DNA of 64,000 nucleotides from Acidobacteriota bacterium (GCA_965209055.1 OZ242374.1:3744001-3808000); one strand, 5' to 3'. Counted from the first letter of the stretch, positions 2,168-9,118 are shown. Notes: generated by a model not told the origin, from the letters alone. Numbers and translations: made by a program.

Positions 2168-2920
2168 ATGGAAGCCAATAACGAAAGCGTGGTGTTGATC
2201 ACCGGGGCCAGCCGCGGGATCGGGGTCGGATTGGCGGAAGGGTTCGCGGTCCCGGGAGCCCGCTTGGCGCTGACGGCCCGCCGGCGGACGTCGCTTCAGG
2301 AGACCTGCCACAGGGTCGAGGCTCTCGGAGCTCACGCTCTACCCCTGGCGTTGGACATGCGGCGGCTGGAGGGCATGCCGGCTGTGGTCGACCAGGTGGA
2401 GGAAGAGCTGGGTCCGATCCGGGTGCTGGTCAACAATGCCGGAGTCAACATCCCCCGTCCGGCCGAGCAGGTCACCGAGGAGCAGTGGGACGAAATTCTG
2501 GACGCCAACCTCAAGGGGGCCTTCTTTCTCTCGCAGGAGGTGGGACGCCGGATGATCCCCCGGAGACGGGGAACCATCGTCAACGTGGCTTCGGCGGCCG
2601 GGCTGGTGGCCCGCGAGGAAAGAGCGGCATACGGCTCCAGCAAGGCGGGGATGATCATGTTGACCCGGGTGCTGGCTCTGGAATGGGCCCGGCACGGCAT
2701 CACCGTCAACGCCGTCGCACCCACCTTCGTGGAAACCGACCTGGCGGCGCAGACTCTGGATCGTCCCGGCATGCGCGAGAAGATCCTGGGACAGATTCCG
2801 CTACGGCGGCTGGCGACGGTGGAAGATGTCGCCGCTTCGGTGCTCTTCCTGGCGTCACCACAGGCGAGCTTCCTGACGGGGGTGGTCATCCCCGTGGATG
2901 GTGGCGCGACGTTACGTTGA
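2168..2920 (+). CDS. Short-chain dehydrogenase/reductase (SDR)
   Basis: TGASRGIG, NNAG, YGSSK and PVDGG motifs; ATG at 2168 follows the upstream stop. Confidence 0.92.
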   Translation: MEANNESVVLITGASRGIGVGLAEGFAVPGARLALTARRRTSLQETCHRVEALGAHALPLALDMRRLEGMPAVVDQVEEELGPIRVLVNNAGVNIPRPAEQVTEEQWDEILDANLKGAFFLSQEVGRRMIPRRRGTIVNVASAAGLVAREERAAYGSSKAGMIMLTRVLALEWARHGITVNAVAPTFVETDLAAQTLDRPGMREKILGQIPLRRLATVEDVAASVLFLASPQASFLTGVVIPVDGGATLR

Positions 2921-4023
2921 AGAGGGGTCGTAGGAGCGGGGGTTTTTAACCCCCGATTCCGGAGTGGCGCTGAAGAGGGGGACAGGAATGTCCCCCCTCC
3001 GGAGAGGCCCGAGATGATGGTGTCCACGTGCATGGTGAATTCCAGGGCGTTGTGGATCAGGCGGCCTCGAGTGGAAGGGCCGTCGGTGGGGGGCCAGTAG
3101 CCGTCCCGGTGCTGCTGTCGGACGAACCAGTCGCCCATGCGGTAGGTCCAGGCCTCATAACGGGGATCTCCGGTGACGAGGTAGAGCAAGGAACTGCCCC
3201 AGCCGCTCTTGCAGACCGGGTCGTAGTTGAACTGCCCGTCAGTGGCGGCCATGGAGAAGTCCTGGTAGAGGCGGGCCAATGCCAGGTATTCCGGATCGGG
3301 GTCGGCCAGATAGAGGCGGCACAGGAACCCGGCGGCGATCCCACCCACGGTCCAGCGCTGGAGCCGGGCGACGCGATTCTCCACCACGAACCAGAAGGCT
3401 TGCTCGGGGTGAAACTCGCGGTTGGGCGTTTGGCGGGCGCGGGACCAGTCGTAGTAGAAGCGGTCGGGAAGCTCGTCCTGGGCGTCGTAGATCCGGCGCA
3501 GGAAACTCGCCACCGACCGCGCCGCCGCCAGATTTCCCGTTGCCAGGCAGGCGAAGCCGCCTCCGGCAGTGTAGGGGATACTCTGATCGTCGCTCTTGGA
3601 GCCGTCCTCGCGGCGGTCGTTGGCGAAAGCGCCTGAAGCCGGGTCCTGCCAACGCAGGAGCGCCGGCATGAGACCATGGGAAAGGTCGTATTGACCCGCC
3701 ATCTGTGCGCCGACGATCAGAGCCGAGTCCCGGTAGGCCCACGCGTCGTTGATCTTTCGGCAGGGTCCGCCGATGCGGCCGTCCGGTTGGAGCATGTGCT
3801 TTCGGATCCAACCGCACAGGCGGCTCGCCGCCTCCGTCTCCCCCACCAGGCTGAAGGTCCAGGGGCCGCGGTAGAAGAAGTACCCTTCGCTCGCGTCGCC
3901 GATGGACCCGTCGGGATTCGTCTGATCCAGCAGCCACTCGGTCGCTCGCGCACGGACCTGCCGATAGAGCGCCAGGCGTTCTCCCCTTTCCGCCGCCGTC
4001 AACTCGCTTCCGGTGGACTGCAT
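2332..4023 (-). CDS. Hypothetical protein, (alpha/alpha)-toroid/prenyltransferase-repeat-like. The plausible domain ends near 3000, but the ORF runs on antisense into the SDR gene.
   Basis: WLLDQTNPDGSI, WQDPASGAF and FVRQQHRDGYW resemble QW-type repeats. There is no stop before 2332; the C-terminal ~220 aa are the repeat element plus the antisense of the SDR. Confidence 0.55.
   Translation of the reverse strand: MQSTGSELTAAERGERLALYRQVRARATEWLLDQTNPDGSIGDASEGYFFYRGPWTFSLVGETEAASRLCGWIRKHMLQPDGRIGGPCRKINDAWAYRDSALIVGAQMAGQYDLSHGLMPALLRWQDPASGAFANDRREDGSKSDDQSIPYTAGGGFACLATGNLAAARSVASFLRRIYDAQDELPDRFYYDWSRARQTPNREFHPEQAFWFVVENRVARLQRWTVGGIAAGFLCRLYLADPDPEYLALARLYQDFSMAATDGQFNYDPVCKSGWGSSLLYLVTGDPRYEAWTYRMGDWFVRQQHRDGYWPPTDGPSTRGRLIHNALEFTMHVDTIISGLSGGGTFLSPSSAPLRNRGLKTPAPTTPLQRNVAPPSTGMTTPVRKLACGDARKSTEAATSSTVASRRSGICPRIFSRMPGRSRVCAARSVSTKVGATALTVMPCRAHSRASTRVNMIIPALLEPYAALSSRATSPAAEATLTMVPRLRGIIRRPTSCERKKAPLRLASRISSHCSSVTCSAGRGMLTPALLTSTRIGPSSSSTWSTTAGMPSSRRMSNARGRA
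2930..3004. repeat. REPIN-like pair of inverted GGAG-type REP hairpins
   Basis: + strand GGAG-CGGGGG-TTTTTAA-CCCCCG; - strand GGAG-GGGGGACA-TTCC-TGTCCCCC. Relatives occur at 14087, 38159 and 62137. Confidence 0.7.
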
Positions 4024-4163
4024 TCGGTTGGCGATTCTACCAGCCGGTCCGGTCGACTGCCGGGTCCGCTCGAGCCGCGGGCAGCCGCAACAGGGAAGCA
4101 GAGCAACTCGGCGTCATGGCCGGGGAGTAGTCTTTACCGGGAACGGGGAGTCCGCCGAGACTC

Positions 4164-5813
4164 ATGAACGAAATGACGAAAAGGCTTCTGATCGTAGCGC
4201 CGGTCGCGTTGGTCATCCTCCTGTTCCTGTCGTTGTTGCCCGTGGACCAGAACTACCTGTCTTCCCGGCAGTTGGACGCAACCTGGCTGGCGTTGCTGCC
4301 GCCGCTGGTGGCCATCGTCTCGGTTCTCATCACCCGCTGGCTGGTTCCGTCCCTCATCTTCGGAATCGCCAGCGCCGCCGTGATTCATGCCTGGCCCTCG
4401 CCCGGCGCCATGGCGGAGTCGCTCTTCGTGAATTACTTCTGGGATTCGGTTCTCGATTCGTTCCACCTCTCCATCCTCGGCTTCACGGCGTCGCTGCTGG
4501 CCCTGGTCAGTGTCACCACCGCCAGCGGCGGGATCCAGGGAATGATCAACCTCATCCTGCGGCTGGCCCGGGGACGCCGCGGAGTATCGGTGGCGACGGT
4601 GGGCATGGGCTTCACTATCTTTTTCGACGACTATGCCAATACGGCGATCGTGGGGCCCACGGTCCGGCCCTTGTTCGATCGGCTGAAGCTGTCCCGCGCC
4701 AAGCTGGCATACCTCATCGACTCGACCGCGGCTCCCATCGCCGGTCTCGCGTTGGTCTCGACCTGGATCGGGACCGAGGTCTCCTACCTCCAGGGCGCGG
4801 CCCGGGACCTGGGATTGGACGCCAGTGGATACGGCCTCTTCCTCTCGGCGATGGGGTACCGGTTCTATTGCATCTTCGCCTTGTTCCTGGTGATCGTGGT
4901 GGCGGCCACGGGCCGCGACTTCGGGCCCATGCTGAAGGTGGAGAGAAAGGCGCGCCGGGTGCCCGAGCCCTCCGGCCTTCAGTCCTCGGCGGAGTCACCG
5001 GAGATCGAGCCGCGCTGGTACAACGCCGTGGTGCCCATCGGCACGGTGCTGTTTCTCATCATGATCCAGATCTACTACTGGGGAAGCCAGGGTCCGGGGA
5101 CCGACTTGACCTCCTTGTCGGGATGGAAGGATGTGTTCATCCGGGCCGCCGCGGCCCAGGACGGCGAAGCCCTCACGTTCGCCATGCTCTACGCGGGCGT
5201 CACCGGAGCCGCTCTGGCGATCCTGTTGCCGGCCCTGCAGGGCGTGATGACGGTGCGGGAGGGGCTTCTGGCGTGGGTCGGGGGTGTCCGGCATATTTCG
5301 GGGGCCCTGGTGGTGATCGTCTGCGCCTGGGCTCTTTCGGCCGGATGCCGCGACTTGGAGACGGCCCACTACGCCGTCGCCGTGTTGCGCCAGGGCGTGA
5401 GCGTCGAGTGGGTTCCGCTTGCGGTGTTCGTCACCGCCGGACTGGTCGCCTTCTCCACCGGGACCAGCTACGGGACCATGGCTATTATTATTCCCACCGC
5501 CGCCCAGTTGGGGTATGAATCGGGCGGTGAGGCGGTGATGATCCTGGCCATGGCCGCCGTCCTGGACGGCGCCATCTTCGGCGACCACTGCAGCCCCATC
5601 TCCGACACCACCGTCCTCTCTTCCATCTGCAGCGGGTGCGAACACCTGGAGCATGTGCGCACCCAGATCCCATACGCTCTTCTCGGGGCGGTGGTGGCCG
5701 CCCTGGCCGGCTATGCCCTGGTGGGCGCCTGGGGAGCCGATCTCTGGGTCGGAATGGCCGCGGGCATGACTGGGATCCTCGTCCTGATTCACGTCGCGGG
5801 CCGGCGGGCCTGA
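4164..5813 (+). CDS. Na+/H+ antiporter NhaC-family membrane transporter
   Basis: IFFDDYAN, YLIDSTAAPIA, FSTGTSYGT, GAIFGDHCSPISDTTVLSS and HVRTQIPYA motifs; many TM segments. Confidence 0.9.
   Translation: MNEMTKRLLIVAPVALVILLFLSLLPVDQNYLSSRQLDATWLALLPPLVAIVSVLITRWLVPSLIFGIASAAVIHAWPSPGAMAESLFVNYFWDSVLDSFHLSILGFTASLLALVSVTTASGGIQGMINLILRLARGRRGVSVATVGMGFTIFFDDYANTAIVGPTVRPLFDRLKLSRAKLAYLIDSTAAPIAGLALVSTWIGTEVSYLQGAARDLGLDASGYGLFLSAMGYRFYCIFALFLVIVVAATGRDFGPMLKVERKARRVPEPSGLQSSAESPEIEPRWYNAVVPIGTVLFLIMIQIYYWGSQGPGTDLTSLSGWKDVFIRAAAAQDGEALTFAMLYAGVTGAALAILLPALQGVMTVREGLLAWVGGVRHISGALVVIVCAWALSAGCRDLETAHYAVAVLRQGVSVEWVPLAVFVTAGLVAFSTGTSYGTMAIIIPTAAQLGYESGGEAVMILAMAAVLDGAIFGDHCSPISDTTVLSSICSGCEHLEHVRTQIPYALLGAVVAALAGYALVGAWGADLWVGMAAGMTGILVLIHVAGRRA
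5750..5813 (+). repeat. Left copy of the diverged direct repeat (current 3' end of the NhaC-family gene)
   Basis: Aligns by hand to 8105-8166 at 51/62 nt plus a 2-nt gap. Confidence 0.8.
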
Positions 5814-5891
5814 GTTAATTTGAAGTTTTCGTAGCAGAGTCTGCACAACCTACGATCCGGAAGGAGAGGACTATCATCCCTTTCGTGAATG

Positions 5892-5958
5892 TGGAGTAGT
5901 CTCTGGAAAGGGACAGTCTGGAGTACTCTCTGGAGTAGTCTCTGGAAAGGGACAGTCT
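5892..5958. repeat. Repeat cluster 1: 28-bp perfect direct repeat TGGAGTAGTCTCTGGAAAGGGACAGTCT x2 (period 39)
   Basis: 5892-5919 equals 5931-5958; the core is the inverse of the one in clusters 2 and 3. Confidence 0.92.
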
Positions 5959-6212
5959 CGATTCCCGGCGGGAAGCGAATCTACGGCATTCTCGAGTTCC
6001 GTTTCTTTACGATTGTGGGGGATCAGAGAAAGCTTGTCAGGCACGGCCGCCGGGATTGGACCACCTCGACACTATCCTCGTTCAACCCAGCTTACCCAGG
6101 TCTCCCGAACCGTCAGAAAATAAGGGAGAGTCCAGGGTCTATTCGGTGGATCCTGTGATCCGGATGGTTCGGTGCCGCAGTGGCCCAATCGGCGGCCGGC
6201 GATCAGACAAGT

Positions 6213-7148
6213 CTACGGGACCAACGCGTGCGAGCGCTGCTCCCGCAGGGAAAACAGCACTCCGCCCAGTTGGGGGATTGGGTGTCGGCGACGTCGATAC
6301 CGGCCTTGCTGCCGATACGCCTCCAGCAACTGCGCCACCTTCTCGGCTGGCCCCACGGCCAAACCGTCCGTCAGGAATCGCAAACGCCGGCGGAACGCTC
6401 CGGCTCGGGCGAATCCACGCCGCTCCTCCTGCTGGAGGATCCACTGCGGGATCGCGGCTTGGTTGTCTTTGGTGGGGACGGCTCCCCGATAGTACAAGCG
6501 AGCCCGGTAACCACCGTACACGTCGGTTCCGGGAACCGACGGAAACAGTTCCTCCAGGGGAATCAGGTCCTCGTCCTTGCCCAACCGTCGCCAGCGGGCC
6601 GAGCCCCACTTCCACTGCTCCGGCCGGTTGGCCAGTCCCGCCCGCACGGCGTTGAGTTCCACGTACAGGACGGCGTCCTGGACGGCTTCCATTCCCAAGA
6701 GTTCCGAGTTCTTGAAACGATCACTCCAAAAATGGCCTCGCCGGCCGAACTGGCGGTTGAACCACCGGGCATAGAGTCCGTTGACGTCCGCCATCAGCCT
6801 CGACACGTCGAACAGACGCCGATTGAGAGCCTCCCACTGGACGTCGGTCCAATCGGCGGTCTTCTTCTCGGCCTGCTCGCCATAGAGCTTGTGGGTGCTC
6901 TTTTTCAACTCCTTGCGGGACAACGACCGGGGCTTCTCGAAATGGACGATGAGGTGGTAGTGATTGCCCATGATCTGGAAGGCGGCCAGACGGCAGCGGT
7001 AGGCATTGACGTAAAACACCATCATGTCCAGGAATTTGCGACGGGCCTGGGGGTCTTCCAAGGGGAACCAATCGGGTCGGCCGGCGACTCGATTGGTGAG
7101 GTGATAGAAGGCGGCTTCGGTGCTCTTGTGCCGTGCGGTTCGGGGCAT
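6213..7148 (-). CDS. Y1 HUH transposase (IS200/RAYT-like tyrosine transposase) with C-terminal extension
   Basis: MPRTAR...FYHLTNR, HUH motif IMGNHYHLIV, FWSDRFK, and catalytic Y in YVELNAVRAG...PEQWKWGSA; start placed at ATG 7148. Confidence 0.9.
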   Translation of the reverse strand: MPRTARHKSTEAAFYHLTNRVAGRPDWFPLEDPQARRKFLDMMVFYVNAYRCRLAAFQIMGNHYHLIVHFEKPRSLSRKELKKSTHKLYGEQAEKKTADWTDVQWEALNRRLFDVSRLMADVNGLYARWFNRQFGRRGHFWSDRFKNSELLGMEAVQDAVLYVELNAVRAGLANRPEQWKWGSARWRRLGKDEDLIPLEELFPSVPGTDVYGGYRARLYYRGAVPTKDNQAAIPQWILQQEERRGFARAGAFRRRLRFLTDGLAVGPAEKVAQLLEAYRQQGRYRRRRHPIPQLGGVLFSLREQRSHALVP

Positions 7149-7246
7149 GGCGGTGGTCCTAGGTCGTCCGAACTCGGAATCGGCGGAGATCGGTTCGTGC
7201 CTCTGATAACAAGAACGACTCAGAACCGGGAAAGGCGAAGGAAACT

Positions 7247-7382
7247 CAAGAAAATCAGCATACGGAGATACAGACAGCATACGGAGATACAGACTGTCCC
7301 CTTCCAGCAAGAAAATCAGCATACGGAGATACAGACCGGAGATACAGACTGTCCCCTTTCGGAACGGTCCCCTTCCGGAACG
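7247..7382. repeat. Repeat cluster 2: nested tandem duplications around ACAGAC-T-GTCCCC
   Basis: 29 bp 7247-7275 = 7308-7336; 19 bp at 7256/7275; 13 bp at 7324/7337; 16 bp at 7351/7367 (1 mismatch). Confidence 0.92.
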
Positions 7383-7524
7383 GAATGCGCCCTTCGTTTA
7401 CTATCTGGGAGGGATTACCCTGGATCCGCACACTGACCGGCGATTCAGGCAGGCGACATTGATTTTGCGATGATGTCAGACATTCGCAATGCGGGGGTCA
7501 ATGAGAAGGAAAGAGAAGGAGCCC

Positions 7525-7962
7525 ATGCTGATCGCAACCGGGGCACTACTCGTTTTGCTGGGGAACCTCGCTTGGGCGACGGGTGAACGCGTCTCCTGCG
7601 GCGGCCAGGCGCCAGGCGCTGAGTGTTGGATGGAGGTGGCCAACCGGCCAGGATGCTACATCTGGAACGGGCACCTCATGCGTAACCAGACGGTGACTTG
7701 GACGGGCGAGTGCGCCGGGAGCTTGGCTCAAGGGGTGGGGACTCTCAAATGGGTCTGGGCGAAGGGAAAGAAAACATCCGAGGAGACTGGGCAGCTCCGG
7801 ACCGGCAGGCAACACGGGCGATGGGTTGTGCGGCTCGCGGATGGCACTGTCGCACAAGGCCCGTTCGTGGAGGGGAAGCGACACGGGCGGTGGGTCGTGC
7901 AGGATGCGAACGGAAACAGACGAGAGATCGCCTTCAAGAAAGGCAAGCGGAGTTCTCGCTAG
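7525..7962 (+). CDS. Small secreted Cys/Trp-rich protein with MORN-like repeats (island cargo)
   Basis: AAGGAG RBS and signal peptide MLIATGALLVLLGNLAWA; VTWTGEC...AQGVG; repeats GQLRTGRQHGRWVV and GPFVEGKRHGRWVV. Confidence 0.7.
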   Translation: MLIATGALLVLLGNLAWATGERVSCGGQAPGAECWMEVANRPGCYIWNGHLMRNQTVTWTGECAGSLAQGVGTLKWVWAKGKKTSEETGQLRTGRQHGRWVVRLADGTVAQGPFVEGKRHGRWVVQDANGNRREIAFKKGKRSSR

Positions 7963-8005
7963 CTCTTCTCTCCCAGCGTAGAGGCGTGCGGAGAAACATG
8001 CAGGG

Positions 8006-8114
8006 AAACAGACTGTCCCGTTCCGCGCGCGGTCCCCTTCCGCGTTCCTCGCAGAAACAGACCGCAGAAACAGACTGTCCCCTTCCGGAATGGCCGTCCC
8101 CTTCCGGAATGGCC
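8006..8114. repeat. Repeat cluster 3: nested tandem duplications around ACAGAC-T-GTCCCC
   Basis: 13 bp CGCAGAAACAGAC at 8050/8063; 19 bp GTCCCCTTCCGGAATGGCC at 8077/8096; GTCCC(G/C)TTCCGCG at 8015/8032. Confidence 0.92.
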
Positions 8115-8166
8115 GGGCGCGACGGCCATTCTCATCCTGATCCACGTCGTGGGCCGTCGGGCGTGA
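8105..8166 (+). pseudogene. Orphan second copy of the NhaC-family gene 3' end (…ATAILILIHVVGRRA*)
   Basis: Translates like the real C-terminus …MTGILVLIHVAGRRA*, including the TGA. Confidence 0.8.
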
Positions 8167-8194: not shown

Positions 8195-8224
8195 TTGACA
8201 GGGCCGGAAAAGCCGCTATATGCT
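8195..8224 (+). promoter_or_regulatory. Sigma70-type promoter candidate
   Basis: TTGACA-N18-TATGCT upstream of the GGAGG RBS and ATG 8267. Confidence 0.6.
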
Positions 8225-8266: not shown

Positions 8267-9118
8267 ATGATGTTGCGACGGACAAGCATATTCCTTTTGC
8301 TGGCGGGGTTGGGATTCACCCAGGCCTGTCAGGCTTCGAGCCATAAGGATCAAGGGACCCGGTATCTGCGTTTCAGCGTGGACGGCCAGGAAGCGTACGG
8401 CATTCTGGAGGGGGATCAGGTCCGTCAACTGAGCGGGGACCTCTACGGCGAATGGGAAAAGACCGAAACCACCCATGCCCTCTCGGACGTCACCATTCTG
8501 GTGCCCAGCAAGAACCCCTCCAAGGTCTTGGCCCTGGCCGGAAACTACAAGTCCCACATCGGGGATTCGGAGCCGAACCCCTATCCGGAACCCTTCATCA
8601 AGCTTCCCTCCTCCTTGCTGCCCCAGGGGGGAGATATCGTCCAGCCCTCCGACACGGATCCGGTGCACTACGAGGCCGAAGTCGTCATCGTCATCGGCAA
8701 GCGGGCCCGGAACGTGTCGCTTGAGCAGGCTATGGACTATGTCCTGGGCATCACCTGCGGCAACGACATCAGCGCCCGGACCTGGCAGAGAAACGACGTC
8801 CAATGGTGGCGGGCCAAGGCCGCGGATACCTTCAGCCCCACCGGGCCCTACATCCTCTCAGGCGTGGATTTCAGCGACTTGAACATGGTGCTCAAGGTCA
8901 ATGGGGAGGTCCGCCAGGAAGCCAAGATCTCCGACATGATCCACGGCATCGCCGAGTCGGTCAGCTTCATCAGCAAGTACGTGACCTTGGAACCGGGAGA
9001 TCTGATCTTCACCGGAACCCCGGGGACCACCAAGGGCATGCAGCCCGGAGACGAGGTCACCGTGGAGATCGACGGGGTCGGAGTCCTGAAGAACAAGATC
9101 GTCGCCGCCGGTTCCTGA
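8267..9118 (+). CDS. Fumarylacetoacetate hydrolase (FAH) family protein with N-terminal signal-like segment
   Basis: NYKSH, HYEAEVVIVIGK, GNDISAR, AKAADTF and TLEPGDLIFTGTP motifs. Confidence 0.9.
   Translation: MMLRRTSIFLLLAGLGFTQACQASSHKDQGTRYLRFSVDGQEAYGILEGDQVRQLSGDLYGEWEKTETTHALSDVTILVPSKNPSKVLALAGNYKSHIGDSEPNPYPEPFIKLPSSLLPQGGDIVQPSDTDPVHYEAEVVIVIGKRARNVSLEQAMDYVLGITCGNDISARTWQRNDVQWWRAKAADTFSPTGPYILSGVDFSDLNMVLKVNGEVRQEAKISDMIHGIAESVSFISKYVTLEPGDLIFTGTPGTTKGMQPGDEVTVEIDGVGVLKNKIVAAGS

Follow-up and report, generated by a model that had tools for sequence, protein, structure and literature searches.

Introduction

TIRtrons and their transposases, the TIRYTs (Di Nocera et al. 2013, PMC3733652), are equated with subclass 2.1 of the TnpA-Y1 proteins (Quentin et al. 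2018, PMC6006769) and with group 1 of the RAYTs, the REP-associated tyrosine transposases (Bertels et al. 2017, PMC5581495). According to the consulted parts of these three papers, TIRYTs form the second largest Y1/HUH subclass (14.9% of strains) and the largest RAYT group, and a sharply defined Acidobacteria subgroup has already been noted. The published repeat motif is GGGGWSAS (PMC3733652, PMC6006769), and the proteins of subclass 2.1 are described as having a C-terminal extension with a domain resembling a helix-turn-helix (HTH; PMC6006769). Here we describe an element of this kind in a stretch of 64,000 nucleotides from an Acidobacteriota bacterium (GCA_965209055.1, OZ242374.1:3744001-3808000; the window, by which we mean this whole stretch). 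A TIRYT-class gene and its repeat clusters lie between nhaC, a gene of the Na+/H+ antiporter family, and a gene of the fumarylacetoacetate hydrolase (FAH) family, and are bracketed by two copies of the nhaC 3' end. To our knowledge, no member of the TIRYT class has been studied biochemically.

In elements of the IS200/IS605 type the subterminal hairpins lie on one strand and differ between the left and the right end, and the transposase has about 150 amino acids. Such elements are reported to have neither terminal inverted repeats nor larger target duplications, as stated in the consulted part of PMC2817692. Long variable direct repeats, of 8-514 bp, are described for the insertion of IS1549 / IS1634 (IS1634 family), which have a DDE transposase, and the part of the source consulted gives no accepted mechanism for them (PMC2266710). 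For TIRYT elements, the consulted parts of PMC3733652, PMC6006769 and PMC5581495 contain no description of direct repeats or target duplications, and a wider literature search likewise returned none.

A first reading of the window made from its DNA alone (below, the sequence-only reading) took the region for an island that had integrated into nhaC, swapped the 3' end of the gene and brought along a cargo gene. Comparison with the other genomes of the genus favours a different account, to which we assign a probability of roughly 0.55: a TIRtron has long resided behind nhaC, its flank was duplicated while the gene end was not exchanged, and the long repeats are secondary rather than an obligatory target duplication.

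The element and the two copies of the nhaC 3' end

The window belongs to a single-contig genome of 6.08 Mb with 62.8% G+C (G000). Its nhaC gene (4164-5813, plus strand; PF03553, E 5.6e-43) is intact, with orthologues of 91-97% amino-acid identity in eight congeneric genomes (G001 to G008). The working 3' end of this gene, including the stop codon, is the first copy of a duplicated 64-bp segment (e1, 5750-5813, plus strand). The second copy (e2, 8105-8166, plus strand) reads as a non-functional relic and is contiguous with the native upstream region of the FAH gene (8267-9118, plus strand; PF01557, E 1.3e-59), the native downstream neighbour of nhaC. Both copies are 79.7% identical over 64 columns with one 2-nt indel (54 bits, E 9e-9), and e2 is the best non-self match of e1 in the whole 6.08-Mb genome (runner-up 29.7 bits, E 0.19). 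Translated in frame, e2 ends in ...AILILIHVVGRRA and the working end in ...GILVLIHVAGRRA, with 10 of the last 13 residues identical and the stop in the same place; four of the codon differences between e1 and e2 are synonymous. The bracketing of the island by two nhaC 3' ends, as described by the sequence-only reading, is thus borne out.

Contigs from three other studies (X1, X19 and X3) reproduce both junctions. The second gene end is therefore not an assembly artefact, which settles the concern that two strains had been joined in a chimeric assembly. None of these contigs joins nhaC straight to the FAH gene and none holds a circle junction; contigs drop rare variants and are hence uninformative on excision.

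The transposase gene (6213-7148, minus strand, 311 codons) has its likely start ATG at 7148 and its stop codon at 6213-6215. The product matches PF01797 (E 2.8e-9) and contains an HUH motif (NHYHLIV) and a Y-x3-N motif (YVELN). Its catalytic residues H64, H66 and Y163 are invariant across the six paralogues of the genome (T1 to T6, T1 being the copy in the window), and the paralogues are 72-82% identical to the window transposase; genomes of the genus harbor 4-12 such genes each. On the NCBIfam model for REP-associated tyrosine transposases (NF047646) the protein scores 52.7 bits, under the cut-off of 80. Its length of 311 amino acids fits subclass 2.1. A Pfam search with residues 158-312 returned no family even at E 10 (HTH models: Bac_DnaA_C, HTH_23 and HTH_28), and no relative of solved structure was found by sequence at E 0.01. 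Homologues at E 1e-30 or better occur in 42 of 137 genomes of the class. This class-wide genome search replaced a peptide-pattern search derived from the alignment of the six paralogues, which was too specific and returned almost only members of the same genus.

Three repeat clusters accompany the gene. Cluster 1, on its 3' side (about 5889-5975, minus strand), consists of two units with the core GGGACAGTCT and of 12-nt partial copies (families D7 and D8; inverted pairs I2-I7). Cluster 2, on the 5' side (7247-7385, plus strand), carries the cores CAGACTGTCCCC with tandem stutters of 19, 13 and 16 nt that abut the core. Cluster 3 (7997-8114, plus strand; families D2 and D4) is a diverged copy of cluster 2 (44-nt block, 86%) and passes without a gap into the second gene end. 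The flanking clusters share the repeat core GGAAR-GGGACAGTCT in inverted orientation: cluster 1 runs opposite to clusters 2 and 3 (for example, the 18-nt arms 5903-5920 and 7290-7307 are 94% complementary), and the terminal inverted pairs I2-I11 measure 15-28 nt at 75-94%. The published motif GGGGWSAS is found as GGGGACAG in clusters 2 and 3 (reverse strand) and, with one mismatch, as AGGGACAG in cluster 1. REP-type hairpins were not found in the clusters, whose fold z-scores (+0.6 to -2.9) are no better than those of shuffled sequences except for one strand of cluster 3 (z -2.9).

The core AGACTGTCCC occurs 66 times in the genome, compared with about 14 occurrences expected, and clusters of it are found at all six transposase loci as well as at some loci devoid of a transposase. 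Outside the window, dense core clusters without a transposase gene lie at G000:C1:1751901-1752487, 3176689-3176954, 5152368-5152708 and 1733479-1733575, some of them about 10 kb from T2 or T3.

The PF01797 match, the invariant HUH and tyrosine motifs, the inverted repeats fitting GGGGWSAS and the lack of REP hairpins assign the enzyme to the TIRYT class. By these features the element is a TIRtron, that is, a TIRYT-class transposase between inverted GGGGACAG-type repeats, a kind that is known but uncharacterised. The sequence-only reading was correct in describing inverted GGGG(A/T)CA(G/C)-type repeats around a RAYT-like Y1/HUH enzyme, and nhaC, the three clusters, the transposase, the small open reading frame (ORF), the gene ends and the FAH promoter are all located where it had placed them.

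The nhaC locus in related genomes

A midpoint-rooted tree of the locus, built from the flanking genes only, consists of the clades (G004,(G001,(G000,G008))) and ((G002,G003),(G005,(G006,G007))). A TIRYT gene is present in the same orientation in G000, G002, G003 and G004. In G002 the locus also holds a putative inserted insertion sequence (IS) and a second gene end of 95 bp that is 93% identical to the first, in G003 the second end is reduced to a relic of 7-9 nt, and in G004 a 245-bp nhaC fragment is found between repeat units on the nhaC side. G001 has a clean junction: the nhaC stop is directly followed by the FAH upstream region, and the FAH gene adjoins nhaC. The loci of G005, G006 and G007 have no transposase and retain about 100 nt from stop to promoter. 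In G005 the first 43 nt or so of this leftover align (about 34 identical) to the sequence that follows e1 in G002, and the leftover ends in an e2 relic of 7-9 nt. The locus is unresolved in G008, a fragmented assembly of 670 contigs.

The putative IS of G002 (locus L034, about 2700-4040 in nhaC sense) is an insertion of about 1.3-1.6 kb between the left repeat cluster and the TIRYT gene, with a long reverse-strand ORF of IS-transposase-like look. In G008 (L027, contig C552) the sequence beyond the first repeat unit behind nhaC enters unrelated genes. This arrangement, together with that of contig C451 described below, would reflect either a rearranged locus or an assembly problem of the metagenome-assembled genome.

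Working nhaC ends of allele type A are those of G000 (e1), G008, G001 and G004. Type B comprises e2 of G000 and the working ends of G002, G003, G006 and G007. The e2 relics of G000, G002, G003 and G005 all read G-TGA, and the e1 copies read C-TGA, except that e1 of G004 reads GCG-TAA.

Since the element occurs in both clades of the locus tree, its presence appears to be ancestral. The element and its duplication appear older than the radiation of the genus, and the simplest history has losses in G001 and on the branch of G005 to G007. Because e2 has the working allele of the other clade, and the e1 allele is common to the clade of G000, G008, G001 and G004, e2 is best read as an old, decaying relic that keeps the ancestral allele and not as a displaced native end; e1 would have changed along with the gene, leaving no need for a foreign gene end. 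The proposed 3'-end swap called for an empty site at which nhaC ends in the 8105-8166 allele and is followed by the FAH gene. At the one clean empty site, that of G001, nhaC instead has the 5750-5813 allele as its end. Neither the swap nor a recent integration is therefore upheld, the insertion appearing ancestral to the genus.

Flank duplications at other TIRYT loci

The sequence-only reading had proposed a look for flanking duplications at other loci of this transposase clade, and the footprint indeed recurs. The sample comprises 62 of the 63 full-length TIRYT copies of the genus (a copy on G006:C16 was left out), each searched for direct repeats over 1.5 kb on either side. Repeats were counted if they were core-free, at least 35 bp long and situated just outside the clusters, with boundaries taken from BLAST. 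Such a repeat accompanies 18 of the 62 copies (40-264 bp, 70-98% identical). Measured outwards from the clusters, it usually lies 3-50 nt beyond the first core on one side and 5-80 nt beyond the last on the other. Applied to random positions of G000, this search gave 25 of 600. TIRYT copies in related genomes are not independent, and counts are given without a P value.

Five further copies have a repeat that includes one core-like heptamer, and repeats at T1 (64 bp), L104 (95 bp), L076, L071 and L112 (1618 bp) were detected under other settings. The stop codon of a frame of at least 100 codons is included in 15 of the 18 repeats, which is a soft measure in a G+C-rich genome. Within G000, three of the six copies have a repeat, namely T1 (64 bp), T3 (129 bp, 91%) and T5 (about 40 bp). 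No shared motif was noticed at the repeat boundaries on reading the loci, without a statistical test. Outside the genus, none of 30 TIRYT loci from about 20 genomes (two sets of 18 loci each, 6 of them common to both) has a long repeat.

Residence and turnover of copies

The transposase genes group mostly by genome although their loci are syntenic. For example, the T3 locus is occupied in G000 to G007 (the G008 contig ends in its left flank), and G004 has the same repeat boundaries as T3. The T3 gene itself shares 95-97% identity with T2 and T4 from its own genome and about 86% with the syntenic copy of G004. This pattern points to concerted evolution or cassette replacement. Since the gene is closer to T2 and T4 than to its counterpart in G004, gene identity is unusable for dating insertions, and such dating was abandoned: the T3 repeat is old, with boundaries common to G004, yet the gene is nearly that of T2 and T4. 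In G002 the flanks of the T3 locus are found 3.5 Mb apart (G002:C1:5093229-5094475 and G002:C1:1621807-1622861), adjoining the TIRYT copies L106 and L103, respectively, which suggests a chromosomal rearrangement via recombination between transposase copies.

Other loci differ in their occupancy. L083 is occupied in five species and empty in G000 and G001. L095 is occupied in seven species and cleanly empty in G008, with a single copy of the segment that is elsewhere duplicated (X); the orientation of its element differs among species. The L095 junctions are the same in six of these species, which have no repeat; G001 alone carries a second copy of the far flank, of 136 bp and 97% identity. A clear case of recent transposition is L108 in G002: from repeat to repeat it matches L107 and a copy in G003 at 99%, and G002 is the only genome with an element at the site. 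No long repeat accompanies it.

Two arrangements are more complex. L068 (G007:C2:1198435-1214577) consists of three TIRYT copies within 10 kb, two of which stand in tandem about 2.3 kb apart, each followed by the same 3' region, a repeat cluster and a 183-bp host segment (87%). At L112 (G006:C2:113438-121132) a TIRYT copy lies between direct repeats of 1618 bp (97.7%), each with an intact unoccupied L107 junction.

We note two further observations on individual copies. The DNA just downstream of T6 (L006; C-terminus shortened) and of T4 (L004) resembles tyrosine-integrase genes by reading. In genome G011 the loci L214 and L215 share a 100% identical block of 1259 bp that ends at the outer edge of the 3' repeat and starts about 95 nt inside the 5' repeat; the 95 nt between are unrelated, and the pair is hence no guide to the element ends.

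Repeat clusters and a candidate nick site

Of the six tandem duplications in the window clusters (periods 13-19 nt), five have a boundary exactly at the middle base of GAC(A/T)GTC, the palindromic core, and the sixth starts 2 nt beyond it. The last 19-nt stutter unit of cluster 3 takes in the first 10 nt of the second gene end, and this stutter is therefore later than that junction. Exact tandem duplications number 118 across the 62 copies of the genus, and 23 of them abut the middle base of the core. In a control with 12 shifted positions per series, 11 of the 12 gave 1-7, the exception being 13 at a position 3 nt beyond (shift -3). The anchoring of stutters at the core is real though not sharp.

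The clusters also vary between strains. The contigs X1, X19 and X3 (95-99% alike) keep the architecture of the locus throughout, with the small ORF and the two gene ends; the only structural differences are units gained or lost in clusters 1, 2 and 3, among them insertions of 22 and 26 nt, deletions of 39, 74 and 91 nt (the latter two in cluster 2 of other strains) and extra stutter units (in cluster 3 of X1 and X19). GAC(A/T)GTC is probably the nick site, as predicted from these comparisons. Excision footprints, expected as the outer-half fusion GGGGAC-W-GTCCCC, found no support: GGGAC[AT]GTCCC occurs 28 times against 7.4 expected, but with arms of 5-6 nt and in the context of ordinary 3'-type repeat variants, and the inner-half fusion CAGAC[AT]GTCTG occurs once.

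Origin of the long duplications

A resident TIRtron could duplicate its flank as follows. The enzyme would nick GAC(W)GTC, on either strand, 3' of its central A/T. The resulting 3'-OH would be extended to a limited extent and the enzyme-linked 5' end re-joined, giving short stutters. If the resident element were re-copied together with its flank, a tandem pair of element plus flank would arise, and loss of one element copy from this tandem would leave native continuity on both outer sides. The L095 locus, L108 and the tandem in G007 speak for secondary re-copying, which we favour. The more specific proposal, that TIRYT elements are HUH elements which cut GAC(W)GTC on either strand and that nick-primed re-copying builds both the stuttered end arrays and the long host duplications, is a tentative one that we regard as possible rather than probable. 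If true, an element landing in or behind a gene tail would leave an intact gene end, a self-mitigating residence at gene 3' ends, and this would explain how elements persist at the same loci across the genus while the transposase genes are homogenised within each genome.

Several points weigh against long residence with secondary duplication. The mechanism is drawn from genome comparisons. With transposase genes grouping by genome, gene identity cannot date insertions, and the statement that recent copies are free of repeats rests mainly on L108. The junctions of the T3 locus differ between G000 and G005, for which independent insertions, each with its own target duplication, would be simpler. 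Two of three G005 copies that are about 95% identical bear repeats of 95-96% identity, which fits duplication at insertion equally well. The count of 0 of 30 outside the genus makes the footprint lineage-specific, and the host could contribute as much as the enzyme. Finally, the stutters are not sharply anchored, 13 arrays starting 3 nt beyond the proposed cut, and the search for excision footprints came out negative.

The G005 copies and the differing T3 junctions make a long target duplication coupled to insertion a serious rival, if on balance a rather improbable one. Here TIRYT would join the two element ends to opposite target strands 40-260 bp apart, and fill-in would leave a long, variable target-site duplication and an intact end of the gene that was hit. 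The exact order native flank - X - element - X - native flank at nhaC, T3, T5, L078, L079, L083 and L095 is in line with it, as are the differing junctions at one locus across species and the agreement in G005 between repeat identity (95-96%) and the identity of the paralogous copies (about 95%). The variable repeats of 8-514 bp that are reported to form on insertion of IS1549/IS1634 provide a precedent (PMC2266710, consulted in part). However, L108, the clearest recent insertion, has no long repeat, and the same holds for 44 of the 62 copies in the genus and all 30 loci outside. At L095 the junctions are shared by six species without a repeat, and the young 136-bp repeat is confined to G001. 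A boundary motif common to the repeats was not noticed either (by reading, no statistics).

Recombination is a less probable source of the repeats, and we consider it unlikely. A circle of element and old flank might integrate by homology into an empty allele, or alleles with the element on either side of X might recombine within the element, in both cases yielding X - element - X with two X copies that can differ from the start. Such events would accommodate the occupation of the same loci across species by transposases that nevertheless group by genome, as well as the differing orientation at one locus. They would also accommodate repeats in which one boundary is the simple-insertion junction and the other varies, and the unconstrained repeat length, which reaches 1618 bp in G006 with an intact empty junction in each copy. 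On the other hand, RecA-type recombination works poorly on repeats of 37-64 bp at about 80-90% identity, neither nhaC nor L095 has yielded an allele in which the element stands on the opposite side of X, and no circles or empty-allele contigs were seen among the contigs, which drop rare variants.

An integrase-type swap is unlikely, and the form in which the sequence-only reading put it, a site-specific island in nhaC whose own 3' end (5750-5813) displaced the native end (8105-8166), has in our estimate very little chance of being right. It draws on the direct repeat of a gene 3' end that brackets the island, and on the displaced copy having the allele type of the working genes in the other clade. 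Yet the working end is common to the element-free sister G001 and the whole clade. The differences between e1 and type B (about 12 in 64 bp) compare with 86.6% identity over the gene and leave a foreign origin unneeded, and the two copies in G002 are 93% identical. Moreover, at other TIRYT loci the footprint involves many different genes, so that there is no single att site. The sequence-only reading was itself right that no integrase is present: within 5814-8104, a function could be assigned only to the Y1 transposase ORF and to the small MORN-like ORF. Chance similarity or a chimeric misassembly is refuted by the match of e1 to e2 (E 9e-9, best non-self match in the genome), the orthologous second copy in G002 with relics in G003 and G005, and the three sets of contigs that span both junctions.

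The small ORF and other features of the locus

The small ORF (7525-7962, plus strand) encodes a MORN-repeat-like protein of 145 amino acids with a predicted hydrophobic N-terminus. It has no match in Pfam or NCBIfam; in a protein atlas, 30 of the 30 nearest clusters carry MORN (score 0.93), which we take as a lead. Its family has 18-43 matches per genome in the genus, and judged by these similarities the ORF belongs to a large family of MORN-like host genes. It sits between clusters 2 and 3, two diverged versions of a single composite unit (44 nt, 86%), and is present in all strains compared (X1, X19 and X3). The only orthologue is found in G008 (97%), on a short contig (C451) and 107 nt from a transposase fragment (residues 148-182). 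Stretches of 5 kb around three other TIRYT loci contain no match to the ORF, the remaining loci not having been searched for it. Of the cargo gene postulated for the island, the ORF itself is thus real and conserved in G008; that it travels with the element is not supported by the three loci searched.

A promoter-like site (TTGACA-18-TATGCT, 8195-8224, plus strand; 10 of 12 matches) precedes the FAH gene, and its sequence is kept in all relatives read. The last codons of nhaC form a G+C-rich hairpin (5797-5812) followed by a T-rich run, with a terminator-like look. The duplicated segments of the L083 locus likewise hold a G+C hairpin.

Comparison with known systems

From this locus and 61 related ones in a single genus comes a concrete candidate cut site for TIRYT enzymes, at element ends that are still remodelled between strains. 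For annotation, short orphan copies of gene 3' ends beside such repeats would be relics of a duplication process and not att sites of missing islands.

Integrase-borne islands at att sites resemble the locus in that the inserted DNA stands between direct repeats with a gene 3' end and leaves the working gene intact. They differ by their tyrosine or serine recombinase, which is absent here, by the many different genes that are hit by TIRYT elements and by a repeat length that varies at a single locus.

IS1549 and IS1634 are the only precedent found for long variable direct repeats. Their enzyme is of the DDE type as opposed to HUH/Y1, and their repeats are reported to arise on insertion. An IS1634-like element was ruled out, the only enzyme at this locus being the Y1/HUH protein.

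The IS200/IS605 elements, which move by 'peel and paste', have the Y1/HUH catalytic core (PF01797) in common with the enzyme described here, which differs in its length of 311 amino acids, in the inverted ends and in the long flank repeats. Membership was ruled out by the inverted ends and by the long direct repeats at 18 of the 62 copies. The long, variable duplications of gene tails contrast with the statement that Y1 elements of this type make no larger target duplication (PMC2817692, consulted in part).

The REP/RAYT (REPIN) systems of Proteobacteria (Nunvar 2010, PMC2817692; Ton-Hoang 2012, PMC3333891) have a homologous enzyme, cognate repeats inverted around its gene, repeats located behind genes and largely vertical inheritance of the loci, all of which has its likeness here. 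The present system differs by its NF047646 score of less than 80, the lack of hairpins, about 66 core copies instead of hundreds, and 4-12 gene copies per genome instead of one or two. A REP/RAYT system was ruled out on the missing hairpin signal, the 66 core copies against about 14 expected and the six gene copies.

The closest agreement is with TIRtrons, as far as the consulted parts of the literature describe them: a RAYT-like Y1/HUH enzyme of about 310 amino acids, inverted repeats that are not REP hairpins, the motif GGGGWSAS, repeats that occur elsewhere in the genome as singles, dimers or clusters, and several diverged copies per genome. A difference from subclass 2.1 is that the reported C-terminal HTH was not detected by Pfam here. 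New to TIRtrons in the present data are the long flank duplications, the core-anchored stutters and the variation of clusters at strain level, together with a genus-wide syntenic residence and the concerted evolution to which the transposase genes point.

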